A DNA stretch of 64,000 nucleotides from an uncultured Bacilli bacterium (GCA_947632375.1 CANRPF010000004.1:1019-65018), one strand, 5' to 3'. Shown: positions 50,093 to 56,557, counted from the stretch's first letter. Numbers and translations: made by a program. The notes: a model not told the origin generated them from the letters alone.

Positions 50093-50278
50093 CCCCGTCC
50101 TTTTTATAAATGAAGCCGGCGGGGCGCGCACGTTCCTTGCGCGCCGAAAAATCCATTATACCACACGCCGCCAATTTTGTCAAGGGAAAAATGATAAAAT
50201 AATTAACAAAAATAATTCCCGAAATTTGTGCATTTTGCCTATTGCGCTTTTTAGTGGTCTGTGCTATACTGTATAATG

Positions 50279-50370
50279 TCAGGAGGGAACAGGGTGTCAG
50301 GTTTCTAACAAGTACAGGTGGCTGATTTCAAAATGAGATTGGTTGCTTCGGAAAAGAAAAACAGCCCAAA
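50279..50370 (+). ncRNA. Putative small RNA upstream of wHTH paralog 1
   Basis: Promoter with no ORF; closing helix GGGTGT/ACAGCCC and GU-rich hairpin. Confidence 0.45.
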
Positions 50371-50457
50371 AAATCAAAAAAGATTTTTAAAAAACTCTTG
50401 ACAAAGAAAACTAAATATGATATAATAAATACATCAAAAGAAAAGGAGAGATGAGTT

Positions 50458-50820
50458 ATGACGAAGATGACTAAGAGAGATTGGTATGGTAGACTGGCGA
50501 AGATTGTTGAGGATTCTAATGCCTCTGATAAGGGCGAGGCTCTTGCCTTTATTGCCCATCAGGTAGAACTGCTTGACAATCGCTCTAGCAACACTAAGCC
50601 GACGAAGAACCAGCAGGCTAATGTTGGTATCTCTGAAAGCATTAAGGTTGCGCTGGGTAACGCTGGTAGGGCTGTTACTGTAACCGAACTGCTGACTGAT
50701 TCCACTCTGAGCGGTTTCACCAATCAGAAAATTTCCTCTCTGCTTAGGCAGATGGTGGAAAAGGGCGAAGTGATTCGCACTGAGGAAAAAAAGAAAGCCT
50801 ACTTCTCCCTTGCGGAGTAG
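50458..50820 (+). CDS. Winged-helix-like protein, paralog 1
   Basis: KPT..Q.AN, T.TEL, TNQK.S.LL, KKKAYFSLAE shared with 54333 and 55612. Confidence 0.75.
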   Translation: MTKMTKRDWYGRLAKIVEDSNASDKGEALAFIAHQVELLDNRSSNTKPTKNQQANVGISESIKVALGNAGRAVTVTELLTDSTLSGFTNQKISSLLRQMVEKGEVIRTEEKKKAYFSLAE

Positions 50821-50841
50821 TAGGCACCCCGAAAGGGGATA

Positions 50842-50901
50842 GCGCCAATAGTTCAGGGGTAGAACAGAAATTAGGCGCGGGTTCGAGTCCCGCTTGGCGC
50901 T
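50842..50901 (+). ncRNA. tRNA-like RNA lacking anticodon arm
   Basis: Acceptor GCGCCAA/TTGGCGC, D arm GTTC/GAAC, T arm GCGGG-TTCGAGT-CCCGC, only 11 nt between D and T arms. Confidence 0.8.
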
Positions 50902-51115
50902 TCATTTTTCTAAGTTGTTGTTTTCCTCCTCTTAAAATGGCTAGGGATTTCCCTAGTCATTTTTTGTTTTGCCGGCCCGCATGCGTTCGCGCGGGCCTCG
51001 TGGTCTCTGTCAATAGTAATGCTGCACAAATTTTGCGGGTCAAATTTGTGCAAAGTGCTAGTTGACATTCTCCCGAAAAGATGTTATAATAAGCCTAGAA
51101 AGAGAGGTAGAAAAC

Positions 51116-51478
51116 ATGGATAAAGAAAAACTTATTAAGCGCATTATGAAAGAGTGTGAAGCCGATGGTGAACCTGTAACAAGAGAAGAAGCGGAGGAAA
51201 TGGCTGAAATGGAAATAAAAGCCAATAAAGATTGTCGGCGGTATGAAACAGATGTGACAAAGAAGCAGAAACCCGCTCAGAGAGAACCAAAAATCGACCC
51301 CGATAAAGTAACCATTATTGATTCAATCGCCCACCAGTTAACTAGATGTGTTTGGCTTGATTCTGAAAAAGAAATTTCAGATATTCAAATTATCAATAGT
51401 CAAAAAGAAATTGCTTTTAAGGTTGGCGAAGATTCCTATTCAGTAACATTAACAAAACATAGAGTAAAAAAGAAGTAG
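51116..51478 (+). CDS. Early protein, paralog of 56141..56557
   Basis: R..K.DP.K..II...I.FK.GED.Y...L motif. Confidence 0.75.
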   Translation: MDKEKLIKRIMKECEADGEPVTREEAEEMAEMEIKANKDCRRYETDVTKKQKPAQREPKIDPDKVTIIDSIAHQLTRCVWLDSEKEISDIQIINSQKEIAFKVGEDSYSVTLTKHRVKKK

Positions 51479-51634
51479 GGCGGAAGCCCTGCTTTTTTCG
51501 CCACGTGGCCCGACAAATTGCACAAAAATCGGGTTCCCGCGCCTTCTATTTTTGTTTATTTTTTTCTATTGACAAATTAAATAAAGAGTGTTATAATTGA
51601 TTTATCAAATGAAAGAGAGGAAACCTCAAAAACC

Positions 51635-52351
51635 ATGAGCAGAAAAAAAATGTATCTTGTAATCGACACTGAAACTTGTAACACTTTGGAACAGCCTTTT
51701 TGCTATGATATTGGCTATGCTATTACAGATAGAACAGGTCGGATTTATCTTGAAAGAAGCTTTGTTGTTGCTGAAATGTTTTTAGATAACAAAGATTTAA
51801 TGGAAAGTTGTTATTTCGCTGAAAAAGTCCCTCAGTATTGGGAAGATATTAAAAATGGAAAGAGAGTATTAAAAAGCATTTACAATATTAGAAAACAGAT
51901 TAAACAGGATATGCGAGATTTTAAAATTCAGGATGTTGGGGCTTACAATATGGGATTCGATAAAAGAGCCTTAAATAATACTATCCGCTATTGTAGTAAG
52001 TCACTGATTAGATGGTTTTTCCCTTTTGGTACACAATATTTTTGTATTTGGAATATGGCTTGCCAAGTTTTAATGACCAAAGTAAAATATATTAAATTTG
52101 CGATACAAAATGATTTTATTAGTGATTCTGGAAACCTTGAAACTTCCGCAGAAAGTTGTTATAAATGGCTGACTAATTCCATTGATTTTGTGGAAAGTCA
52201 CACAGGACTTGAAGATGTAAGAATTGAAATTGCAATCATGGCGGAGTGTTACCGCCAGCATAAAAAAATGAATAAAGAAATCTATTCCGCTTGTTGGAGG
52301 ATTCCGCAGAGGAAAAGAAAAGAATTAGAGTTGCGCGAGGTTTTCCGCTAA
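51635..52351 (+). CDS. DEDDh 3'-5' exonuclease
   Basis: DTET, AYNMGFD, HTGLED. Confidence 0.85.
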   Translation: MSRKKMYLVIDTETCNTLEQPFCYDIGYAITDRTGRIYLERSFVVAEMFLDNKDLMESCYFAEKVPQYWEDIKNGKRVLKSIYNIRKQIKQDMRDFKIQDVGAYNMGFDKRALNNTIRYCSKSLIRWFFPFGTQYFCIWNMACQVLMTKVKYIKFAIQNDFISDSGNLETSAESCYKWLTNSIDFVESHTGLEDVRIEIAIMAECYRQHKKMNKEIYSACWRIPQRKRKELELREVFR

Positions 52352-52452
52352 GTGCGGAGACCTCGCGCCCGTGCAAAATATTTTTTAAAAAGTATTGACA
52401 AATTAACAATAACATGATATAATAAATTTATCAAAAGAGAGGAGATAAAAAG

Positions 52453-54722: not shown

Positions 54723-54853
54723 GCCTAACCCAAAACAAAGGGCGGTGGGGCTAGACCCCGCCGGCCCGTGCAAAAAATTTTTTAAAAAACCTATTGACTT
54801 TTTTAGAATGATGTGATATAATAAATACATCAAAGGAAAGAGAGGTCAAGACC

Positions 54854-54982
54854 ATGACAACAACTTTCATGTATACTAGCAAAGAGGCTTTCGAGCGAGT
54901 TAAAAAGTTTTTGATTCAAAATCAATACTTGTTTGAAGCTGAGGAACACAATAAATTATTCATTCTGAAAGTAAAGGAGTAA
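54854..54982 (+). CDS. 42-aa early protein (MTTTFMY...)
   Basis: Promoter + GAGG. Confidence 0.6.
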   Translation: MTTTFMYTSKEAFERVKKFLIQNQYLFEAEEHNKLFILKVKE

Positions 54983-54985
54983 ATT

Positions 54986-55231
54986 ATGAATACTGGAATT
55001 AAGTTATACACAGATGAAAAGTATGGTTACATTTTGGAGCTTTGGGGCGGTAGCACCAAACACCCTGATTCTAGGTTTTTCTTTTCTGACTTTCAGAAAA
55101 ATGATTTCCTTGATGATGAATGTCAAGTGTTCCAGTGGTTGTTGGAATGTGCAAGTAAATTGACCTTTCCTTTTCATGCTGAACAGCTTGCAAGATACGC
55201 TCTTGAAAATTGGGTTGTGTGGAGAGACTAG
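54986..55231 (+). CDS. Early hypothetical protein
   Basis: AAGGAG RBS, terminator. Confidence 0.65.
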   Translation: MNTGIKLYTDEKYGYILELWGGSTKHPDSRFFFSDFQKNDFLDDECQVFQWLLECASKLTFPFHAEQLARYALENWVVWRD

Positions 55232-55414
55232 CAAAAAGCTAGTCTCTTTTTCATCGCGGCGCGAATGACCCTCTCGCGCCGAATATTCCATTATACCACA
55301 CCTTTGCAACTTTGTCAAGTAGAAATTGTAAAAAAGTTGCACAAATATTTTTCCCGAATTTTGTATACTTTGCCTATTGTGCTTTTTGGCGGTCTGTGCT
55401 ATAATTAAACCATC

Positions 55415-55500
55415 GAAAGGGAGAGCGACTTACAAGCGGGTGAGGAAAACTCCTAGGGCGGGCGCCCGCCATGAGAAAACCCATTCCAGTCAATCTCAAA
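55415..55500 (+). ncRNA. Putative small RNA upstream of wHTH paralog 3
   Basis: Promoter without RBS-led ORF; nested GAGA/TCTC, GACT/AGTC, GGGT/ACCC, AGGA/TCCT, GGCGG/CCGCC helices. Confidence 0.5.
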
Positions 55501-55611
55501 CAACTAAATAAAAAAAATTTTAAAAAAACTATTGACAAAACAAACCAAACATGATATAATAAATCATGTAAGGAACAAAGAAAACAAACAAATTTAAGGA
55601 GGGTTTTAATT

Positions 55612-56004
55612 ATGACTAAGAAGGAAATGTTTGCAAAGGTTATCGCACTGGTTGAGGGTACTGAGGTTGATGAAAAGGCTGAGATTCTCGAAAAGCTGAA
55701 TCATGAGGTAGAACTGCTGGCGAATAGGTCTAGTAGCTCTAAGCCCACTGCCACCCAGAGGGCAAATACTGCCATTCTCGCCACTCTGGAAGGTGTAATG
55801 GCTGAGGCTGAAAAGCCTATGACCATTACTGACCTGATGAAGGACGAAAGGCTTGCCACCTATGAGGTGACTGATTCCAGCGGTACTCATACTGAGGTTA
55901 TGACTAACCAGAAATTGACCGCCATGGTCAAGAAGCTGATTGCCAATGGCAAGGTTGTAAAGACTGTGGATAAGAAAAAGTCTTATTTCTCCCTTGCGGA
56001 GTAG
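55612..56004 (+). CDS. Winged-helix-like protein, paralog 3
   Basis: Shared motifs with 50458 and 54333. Confidence 0.75.
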   Translation: MTKKEMFAKVIALVEGTEVDEKAEILEKLNHEVELLANRSSSSKPTATQRANTAILATLEGVMAEAEKPMTITDLMKDERLATYEVTDSSGTHTEVMTNQKLTAMVKKLIANGKVVKTVDKKKSYFSLAE

Positions 56005-56140
56005 TAAGATGAAGGGCGGAGCAATCCGCCCTATTCCACTTTCTGGCGCACGGGCACAAAATTTTTATAAAAACTTATTGACAAAAGAAAATTTTTATGT
56101 TATAATATTTTTAGAAAAAGAAAAGAAAGGGGATTTGTGA

Positions 56141-56557
56141 ATGATTACTTATGAACTGGGTAAGAGAAAGATAAAAATTCCAGAAACAGACATTGAGCGG
56201 TCAATGAAAATTCTGGGTATTACTAAAGATGAAGCTATTCAGGTTTGGCTTGAAGATGAAGGGTATCTTGAAAATGAGGAACAGGAAGAACTGGAAGCAA
56301 AGGCGAAGAAAAATCGCATAACCGCAACCATTCATCAGGCAAGTGCTAAAGACCCTGCTAAAAAGACCCAGAAAGAAAGAGTAAGAAAAGAAGACCCTAC
56401 AAAAGAGCTGATTATTGCAAAAACCGCAGAATTTTTGAAAGATTATGCAGAAAATGTTACAATTACTAACATTGGAAAGCTGATTTCTTTTAAAATTGGT
56501 GAAGATGACTATGAATTTAATCTGATTCGCAAGCGGAAACCTAAAAAGGGCGCATAA
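56141..56557 (+). CDS. Early protein, paralog of 51116..51478
   Basis: Shared C-terminal motif. Confidence 0.75.
   Translation: MITYELGKRKIKIPETDIERSMKILGITKDEAIQVWLEDEGYLENEEQEELEAKAKKNRITATIHQASAKDPAKKTQKERVRKEDPTKELIIAKTAEFLKDYAENVTITNIGKLISFKIGEDDYEFNLIRKRKPKKGA

Follow-up and report, generated by a model that had tools for sequence, protein, structure and literature searches.

In this work, we focused on a 64,000-nucleotide stretch of DNA deposited under an uncultured Bacilli bacterium (GCA_947632375.1 CANRPF010000004.1:1019-65018; hereafter the window, i.e. the whole stretch analysed), and especially on three arrays that each lead to a gene for a winged helix-turn-helix (wHTH) protein. 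A first-pass annotation had described them as a repeated module in which each wHTH paralog could be paired with its own small non-coding RNA. We found that the architecture is real and conserved but had been partly misread: the arrays are promoter stacks with RNA and minigene cargo, not cognate protein-RNA pairs. Our preferred reading, to which we assign a probability somewhat below one half (about 0.45), is that the stacks yield read-through transcripts with capped 5' ends and thereby amplify the wHTH protein; the transcription, ribosome stalling and protection from RNase J1 that it involves are predicted from sequence.

The window comes from a large tailed phage, on a contig of 73 kb that was binned into an unrelated draft genome: the contig's GC content is 34 % vs 26 % in the bin, and the contigs of its relatives also sit in bins of unrelated taxa. 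The same bin (G000) holds a second related phage on contigs C31, C37 and C43, with about 80 % DNA identity in structural genes. The major capsid candidate matches gut phage Phass-1 at 50 % and Enterococcus phages EF1, EF5, H1 and VRE9 at 35 %; these matches, together with extended -10 promoters and strong Shine-Dalgarno (SD) sites, point to a Bacillota host. The wHTH arrays sit inside the early region of the phage, at 43.2-57.7 kb on the plus strand, where about 30 cassettes follow one another, each combining an SD and an A/T tract with a sigma-A promoter close to perfect. Promoter-like sites number 49, vs 23.3 +/- 5.8 in shuffled sequences.

Promoter stacks lead to wHTH genes

Stacks were compared between gene families in the first 56 loci retrieved and the window's early region, genes lying less than 450 nt from the start of a locus being excluded; since these loci are related and partly redundant, all counts are descriptive. 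At least one extra promoter-headed unit (holding no gene of at least 25 codons) stood upstream of 77/115 distinct wHTH genes, vs 62/572 other genes and 4/63 genes of the partner family described below. The co-occurrence of upstream module and wHTH gene, which it had been proposed to test in other phages, is clade-wide. Stacks opened by an antisense promoter preceded 34 of the 115 wHTH genes and 37 of the 572 others. A larger survey, made on a wider locus set with 314 wHTH genes, found one to four units before 196 of them, 66 with an antisense promoter; in 57 of these 66 the two divergent -35 elements were 46-51 or 58-62 bp apart. That homologues elsewhere would carry upstream units is true of these 196 and fails for the other 118.

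Terminator-like sites were found in 0/261 cassette-type units leading to a wHTH gene, vs 152/311 stretches that follow wHTH stop codons, and other cassettes of the region do carry them. An SD-like word lay within the first 45 nt of most units (232/261). About a third of units (110/336, a count that includes some false units) barely fold, with a minimum free energy above -5 kcal/mol, and consist of an SD-like purine run and an A tract. Because of this, and because the commonest promoter-to-promoter spacing is 85-100 bp, many units cannot be structured effectors. Enterococcus phage EF1, a cultured relative with a simple stack, has three distant wHTH homologues, one behind promoters 90 and 89 bp apart whose units are bare SDs, and two without a stack.

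The downstream genes carry the mark of an abundant protein, as judged from their use of optimal codons, which are commoner in wHTH genes than in their neighbours in 111/114 loci, with a pooled comparison in agreement. Within the window, GC content at third codon positions is 0.53-0.56 for the wHTH genes vs 0.28-0.32 for neighbours. The family is large (3576 matches at E 0.001 among 7999 scored) and is present in 1-5 copies per fetched locus.

Minigenes at the start of units

The upstream transcripts had been called ORF-less, which does not hold in general: at 54055 and 54165 the interval opens with an SD followed by a short frame, and relatives conserve frames of this kind at the peptide level. 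An SD-led MRDPP frame occurs in 27 copies within 2 mismatches of the reference, and 16/16 changes among them are third-position and synonymous. Further RxPP minigenes in relatives encode MRSPP or M(T/I)S(N/D)(A/V)RPPP, and RxPP overall is found in 25/108 minigenes vs 0/916 ordinary N-termini. These peptides have 5-26 residues and are followed by wHTH genes, with no N-terminal signal or membrane segment and no sec or yidC gene. Two DNA scans of a viral collection, not conditioned on the protein, gave at least 24 stretches each, many on contigs already in the locus set. Where promoter, SD and MR(D/S)PP occurred together, a wHTH gene lay at most 1.5 kb downstream in 28/32 of the matches listed (22/26 distinct); for MR(D/S)PP without a promoter, a wHTH gene lay within 1.5 kb in 2/17 of the matches listed.

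In the arrest peptides ApdA and ApdP, the middle residue of the motif tolerates Gly, Ser, Asp and Pro with partial or near-full arrest, and bacterial proteomes contain fewer RDPP and RSPP motifs than expected (PMC12992588). The D, S and P seen as middle residues in the minigenes are thus arrest-permissive there, which supports a stalling reading, and we predict that the MRDPP and MRSPP minigenes stall ribosomes.

A second type of minigene, family F4, joins a short frame to a hairpin. An in-frame ATG was present in 24/25 copies, and R/K-x-R/K, including literal RLR and RCR, stood in one fixed frame in 18/25, vs 1 and 0 in the other frames; for this count, three matches without a called hairpin were dropped, and the window copy, the one lacking that frame, and one other were added by hand. 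The middle codon of the motif is separated from the hairpin by 11 nt, roughly the distance at which the leading edge of a ribosome would be expected. Behind the hairpin there is either a frame of 2-9 codons or no frame at all before the next promoter begins. The signal is confined to F4: generic R/K-x-R/K was not enriched across all minigenes (18/108 vs 110/916, P 0.17). The second start after the hairpin gives Met-Thr-stop in 10/23 copies (e.g. L029:7805-7840). The last Arg codon of the motif is mostly AGG (16/22), and this AGG, read across the folded hairpin, could serve as the SD of the second start.

Proposed mechanism

Promoters for the host polymerase, stacked with no terminators between them, would give a nested set of early transcripts, each running on into the wHTH gene; because no unit has a terminator, we infer that their output sums on that gene. 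Their 5' ends would be shielded from 5'-to-3' decay by a parked ribosome, held on a bare SD or a stall minigene, or by a hairpin; empty units, stall minigenes and 5' stems would then be three forms of one device against RNase J1. In Bacilli, long stretches of RNA are protected from this nuclease when their 5' end carries a stalled ribosome or a strong SD that lacks a start codon (PMC3997798). The outcome would be a large and lasting supply of an abundant, non-cognate, nucleic-acid-binding wHTH protein early in infection. Structured RNAs would ride as cargo, possibly trimmed out at A/U tracts, and the divergent promoter with its palindrome would form a shared entry block of the arrays of the early region.

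Several observations weigh against this mechanism. Its statistical basis is softened by the relatedness of the loci, by which P values overstate independence, and 118 wHTH genes are without any extra unit. On the window's own contig no cassette promoter is followed by an RxPP minigene, and the F4 copy at 54165 has lost the R/K-x-R/K register. The motif itself is a macrolide arrest motif that in the work cited stalls only in the presence of the drug (PMC12583479) and would therefore not provide a constitutive RNA cap, and known RAPP arrest relies on a longer upstream peptide than a bare MRDPP would offer. Finally, the conserved loops of the RNA families exceed the needs of a plain stabiliser.

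Structured and tRNA-like RNAs

Four foldable intervals had been proposed upstream of the wHTH genes. Structure is backed by covariation at 50279 and 55415, weakly so at 54165, and not at 54055, for which no homologue was found in relatives. Folded on their own, none of the four did better than shuffled sequences (z -0.90, +0.72, -0.01 and -1.11). The 50279 RNA has 7 homologues, with 11/30 pairs changed on both sides, and the 55415 RNA has 4, with 7/19, both alignments being small and including close relatives. A G-U-rich family absent from the window showed 7/14 such pairs in 21 sequences. Profiles built without the window's rows recovered 50285-50367 (E 2.5e-12), 55420-55502 (E 5e-15) and 54202-54234 (E 0.008). 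We conclude that at least three new RNA families are present. More broadly, 270 unit cores fell into 137 clusters, 102 of them singletons and the rest recurrent families. The 50279 RNA has an AGUA/GAA internal loop, which we take to be S-turn-like. At gathering score, Rfam matched only tRNA and RT-2 in the window, and only tRNA in the loci of nine relatives. A conserved peptide inside the 50279 RNA was ruled out by an indel that shifts the frame among relatives, and hammerhead, CRISPR-repeat, type III antitoxin and CodY-box assignments were dropped after by-eye comparison with consensus sequences.

Other conserved non-coding stretches occur in the region. Those at 47205-47395 and 47845-48025 are related promoter-headed units (E 9e-9 mutual) with weak matches in relatives, and lead to no wHTH gene. 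Two more lie at 45835-46040 and 48575-48700, with homologues in L067, L003, L057 and L005 and in L091 and L181.

The tRNA-like RNA reported after paralog 1 was recovered as a match to the Rfam tRNA model, without an anticodon arm, 2 nt replacing 13 model positions; ARAGORN at default settings did not call it. T-loop motifs lie 3' of 42/306 wHTH genes, and for 12 of them relaxed ARAGORN settings gave tRNA-Lys; others are further tRNAs, anticodon-less forms, or minihelices of acceptor stem and T arm. Counted by locus, tRNA-Lys follows a wHTH gene in 8/52. RNase P and RNase Z read the portion of tRNA that is retained here, which suggests a role in processing or 3' protection. A phage-encoded transfer-messenger RNA lies close to the wHTH region at L013:1420-1843.

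The wHTH and partner proteins

All three wHTH paralogs were present as annotated, the second and third being 60 % and 38 % identical to the first. A fourth, divergent and with another linker, lies on G000 contig C4 (window coordinate 67647-68027) without a promoter stack. In the predicted structure (predicted local distance difference test score 88), a pair of N-terminal helices is joined through a linker to a compact winged helix at the C-terminus. For residues 51-120 the best fold matches were the Z-alpha domains of ZBP1 and PKZ (Z 11.3, root-mean-square deviation 1.4, 64 aligned; Z 11.2, 1.0, 62 aligned), tied with Zur (Z 10.6) and followed by many regulators, and Foldseek gave no match to the model at E 0.001. 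In Z-alpha domains, nucleic acid is contacted by an Asn and a Tyr four apart in helix 3 and a Trp in the wing. Despite the agreement in fold, membership was rejected on residues: in a 110-row alignment the recognition helix (columns 88-98) holds no Tyr, and the wing (columns 111-117) holds Tyr or Phe, not Trp.

The second-family paralogs reported after wHTH paralogs 1 and 3 were likewise found; they match each other weakly, yet belong to one family of 58 aligned sequences. This partner gene lies directly 3' of a wHTH gene for 119/165 partners and 123/293 wHTH genes. A fold search with the whole protein, its domains not taken separately, gave no clear match (best Z 3.7). Neither wHTH nor partner received a family name in Pfam, PHROGs and PDB sequence searches, and the Atlas look-alikes of one wHTH homologue were all unnamed. 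After partner 1, at 51635-52351, is a DEDD-type exonuclease-like gene; in phage EF1, two of the wHTH homologues are followed by the start of a similar gene.

Alternative roles of the cargo

The conservation of RNA and minigenes raises the question of whether the cargo, rather than the wHTH gene, is the product that matters. It is possible, though in our view doubtful, that the stacks encode a translation-hijacking RNA battery shared across this clade of gut phages, with the Z-alpha-like winged helix as its general carrier; in it, five-codon mRNAs that stall, minigenes of start and stop, fragments of tRNA and hairpins resembling rRNA would park host ribosomes, soak up factors of rescue or defence, or sense antibiotics that target the ribosome. 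We consider unlikely the related proposal that the RNAs are the effectors, abundant minigene mRNAs trapping host ribosomes or rescue factors, tRNA-like and S-turn RNAs acting as decoys for proteins of the host or of defence and the wHTH protein as their general chaperone. It would account for the conserved RNA loops, for the ranking of Z-alpha domains, binders of nucleic acid shapes, at the top of the fold matches, and for the translation theme of the cargo (RxPP, R/K-x-R/K, the start-Thr-stop frame, tRNA-Lys, anticodon-less tRNA and T-arm minihelices). However, no terminator (0/261) would release discrete RNAs, a third of units are empty, and trapping ribosomes is also costly to the phage; moreover, a trap acting in trans need not precede one gene family, yet 28/32 do among the matches listed.

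Minigenes might instead be sensors in the manner of erm leaders, stalling under macrolides or under a shortage of EF-P, ABCF or tRNA and so raising wHTH output, an idea we find rather improbable. The anatomy of F4 is indeed that of an erm leader, down to literal RLR and RCR at a fixed distance before a hairpin, and its motif is macrolide-dependent (PMC12583479). Against a sensor speak the lack of an attenuator terminator and of a sequestered start of a real gene, the strong downstream promoter that the wHTH gene has of its own, and the minority of units that would be covered; the last Arg codon, mostly AGG, may instead have been retained for its use as an SD.

Gain and loss between homologous promoters affect entire units: among five close relatives compared, an MRSPPK unit stands between the 50279-type RNA and paralog 1 in L057 and L059, and is missing exactly from promoter to promoter in L001, L005 and L135. 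In the stack slot just before the paralog-1 orthologue, L057 has a basic gene of 50 aa (L057:4670-4920) that is conserved at the equivalent position in L001, L005, L059 and L135 and is absent from the window. Such exchange, the many empty units, their spacing near the polymerase footprint and the make-up of the whole of 43-57.7 kb from promoter cassettes would suit stacks that are mainly DNA elements, i.e. polymerase decoys or leftovers of PeSL-like shuffling with incidental RNA. This is very improbable, as it gives no account of the synonymous-only change in minigenes, the G-U-rich covariation or the tie to one gene family, and it is already contradicted for structured and coding units.

RNA type and protein subtype

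If each wHTH protein had a cognate RNA, RNA type should track protein subtype, and in four of five RNA families it does not. In these four, proteins that share an RNA family across loci have a median identity of 41-46 % (minimum 22-25 %), whereas paralogs of the same locus without that RNA are 63-66 % identical to its holder; the own paralog was closer than the other holders in 10/13, 29/29, 39/39 and 14/21 cases. The fifth, the 50279 RNA, shows the opposite trend (own paralog closer in 1/5) and involves only near-identical phages. The same RNA families precede proteins on distant branches of the tree, and sometimes no wHTH gene. Of the picture of conserved paralogs with diversified RNAs in a repeated module, the architecture is clade-wide and the cognate pairing finds no support.

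The palindrome had been read as a possible site of autoregulation. The repeat upstream of the three genes was found, as 149 nt in three copies (50120, 53897 and 55255; family D7), as were antisense promoters that are all perfect (12/12), weak sense promoters, and perfect sense promoters for the three wHTH genes themselves, another perfect one lying at 54128. The 30-bp palindrome is perfect in the second array and has 2 mismatches in the others. Equal or better copies stand before the partner gene at 51023 (0 mismatches) and at the start of the region at 44929 (1 mismatch). Phages that share the palindrome can differ in the recognition helix, and one helix can be found in phages that carry another motif instead; autoregulation through the palindrome is not supported by this pattern. 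Within the palindrome, a TCCC(G/A)AAA core (50215-50222, 53993-54000 and 55351-55358) is more conserved across relatives than the arms. L010, L011, L013, L014, L020 and their kin form an AT-rich subclade with mostly empty units, in which TTGACATGTCAA-type motif repeats replace the palindrome.

The GC palindrome of the first-pass annotation is present as well, but as the 5' hairpin of the predicted antisense transcript. A GC stem of variable sequence starts at about +3 from the antisense promoter and is often followed by the two-way terminator of the upstream gene, so the antisense product is predicted to be a 50-65 nt RNA. At 47766 there is one more antisense promoter, the fourth, again with its GC hairpin, but the block does not head towards a wHTH gene. 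Across the loci, the antisense pattern lay within 800 nt of a wHTH gene in 101 of 284 matches, the 284 including promoters of inverted cassettes; the block of hairpin, antisense promoter and palindrome also stands before other genes.

Binding of each wHTH paralog to the RNA upstream of it, or repression of its stack by way of the palindrome, is hardly likely, since in four of five families the holder of an RNA resembles paralogs of its own genome that lack the RNA more than it resembles the other holders, the palindrome is unspecific and does not track the recognition helix, and the same RNA families head units leading to no wHTH gene, even though winged helices are able to bind RNA or operators, stacks and wHTH genes are tightly linked, and RNA sets often keep the same paralog position among close phages.

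Features of the arrays and their surroundings

Coordinates of the three arrays are listed below.

Table. Annotated features of the three wHTH arrays and partner genes, in window coordinates
Feature	Position	Strand	Remark
GC hairpin, predicted 5' end of antisense transcript 1	50123..50145	-	similar hairpins in relatives
Antisense sigma-A-type promoter 1	50155..50183	-	12/12, extended -10
Operator-like palindrome	50203..50232	.	2 mismatches
Weak sense promoter	50242..50270	+	-35 element 59 bp from antisense -35
Structured RNA, 50279 family, long hairpin with AGUA/GAA internal loop	50277..50372	+	8 aligned
wHTH paralog 1 promoter	50398..50426	+	
wHTH paralog 1	50458..50820	+	N-terminal helix pair, then linker and compact winged helix
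tRNA-like RNA without anticodon arm	50842..50901	+	
Terminator-like hairpin ending array 1	50934..50963	+	
Palindrome copy before partner gene	51023..51052	.	perfect
Partner family paralog 1	51116..51478	+	own promoter at 51062
Bidirectional terminator-like hairpin at which antisense transcript 2 is predicted to end	53870..53893	.	
GC hairpin of antisense transcript 2	53900..53922	-	z -4.1 together with terminator
Antisense promoter 2	53932..53960	-	12/12
Operator-like palindrome	53980..54009	.	perfect
Weak promoter and short unit (SD, 2-5 codon frame)	54019..54112	+	first 20 nt of unit common to next unit
Strong promoter and degenerate F4 (minigene-and-hairpin) member	54128..54245	+	E 0.008
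wHTH paralog 2 promoter	54269..54297	+	
wHTH paralog 2	54333..54722	+	paralog by sequence
GC hairpin of antisense transcript 3	55257..55281	-	z -3.7 with upstream terminator hairpin
Antisense promoter 3	55290..55318	-	12/12
Operator-like palindrome	55338..55367	.	2 mismatches
Weak sense promoter	55377..55405	+	
Structured RNA, 55415 family, stem with A-rich internal loop and variable apical domain	55412..55502	+	5 aligned
wHTH paralog 3 promoter	55532..55560	+	
wHTH paralog 3	55612..56004	+	paralog by sequence
Partner family paralog 2	56141..56557	+	own promoter at 56078; two small domains

Just before array 2, at 53576-53877, two tandem 50-aa acidic, Cys-rich paralogs share one promoter. Elsewhere in the window, on the minus strand at 672-4000, is a likely diversity-generating retroelement with a reverse transcriptase (PF00078), an RT-2 RNA at 1879-2090 and a 145-aa gene; its repeat pair of 118 nt (2257-2374 and 3165-3282, 85 %) extends into a DUF6273 gene.

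Significance and comparison with known systems

If the minigenes stall ribosomes, selection in phages has preserved arrest peptides of minimal size in nature (MRDPP, MRSPP, MRLRM), RxPP being otherwise avoided by proteomes of the phylum (PMC12992588), and the phages would be parking ribosomes deliberately, whether as armour for early mRNA or as a means of acting on translation in the host. Were the RNA-battery account true, no shorter RxPP arrest genes would be known in nature, and none had been known in phages before; if promoter stacking alone holds, the locus is a modest extension of PeSL-like cassettes. The analysis yields new RNA families, a large unannotated wHTH family and ready expression parts for Bacillota. 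In the literature searched we found no description of MRDPP or MRSPP minigenes, of RAPP arrest in phages, of tRNA-like decoy RNAs in phages or of such promoter and RNA arrays, although supplements of RNA-motif screens may list some of the motifs; the main text of the Phass-1 paper contains neither 'promoter' nor 'non-coding' (PMC10607447).

Compact winged helices are shared with Z-alpha, Fur/Zur, IclR and MarR proteins; compared with Z-alpha, the phage protein lacks the Asn..Tyr pair and the wing Trp and adds an N-terminal helix pair. In Aca and anti-CRISPR autoregulation a helix-turn-helix gene lies near inverted repeats, and in type III toxin-antitoxin systems an RNA lies upstream of a protein gene. 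Here, unlike in either, operator and protein do not covary, the RNAs are not repeats of one unit and there is no nuclease fold.

A polypurine stabiliser element is known from phage SP82. Bacilli 5' stabilisers in general (the stalled-ribosome leader of ermC, cryIIIA, polypurine SD) carry close to the 5' end of the transcript either a stalled ribosome or an SD that heads no gene (PMC3997798), as is seen or predicted for the units here, but they are single leaders, whereas in these phages several kinds are stacked, each with its own promoter, on transcripts predicted to be nested. The RAPP-type peptides ApdA, ApdP and ApcA, and SecM, share with the minigenes of relatives an RxPP with a permissive middle residue and a place upstream of a gene; they are long secretion monitors before sec or yidC in bacteria (PMC12992588), whereas the phage ones span 5-12 codons and have no signal sequence. 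Macrolide leaders of the ErmDL type, with MRLR as minimal form, have M..R/K-x-R/K at a fixed distance before a hairpin, as does F4 (PMC12583479), but no resistance gene or attenuator follows F4, and the window copy is without the motif. PeSL cassettes of T4-like phages offer the same repeated strong early promoters of host type, AT-rich upstream tract, SD and shuffling of modules through recombination; their stem-loops terminate transcription and head genes (PMC2839356), whereas the stacked units have no terminators and carry RNAs, minigenes or nothing before one gene family. Lacking a defining feature of each of these systems, the locus would best be described as PeSL-like cassettes joined to 5' stabilisers and arrest leaders.

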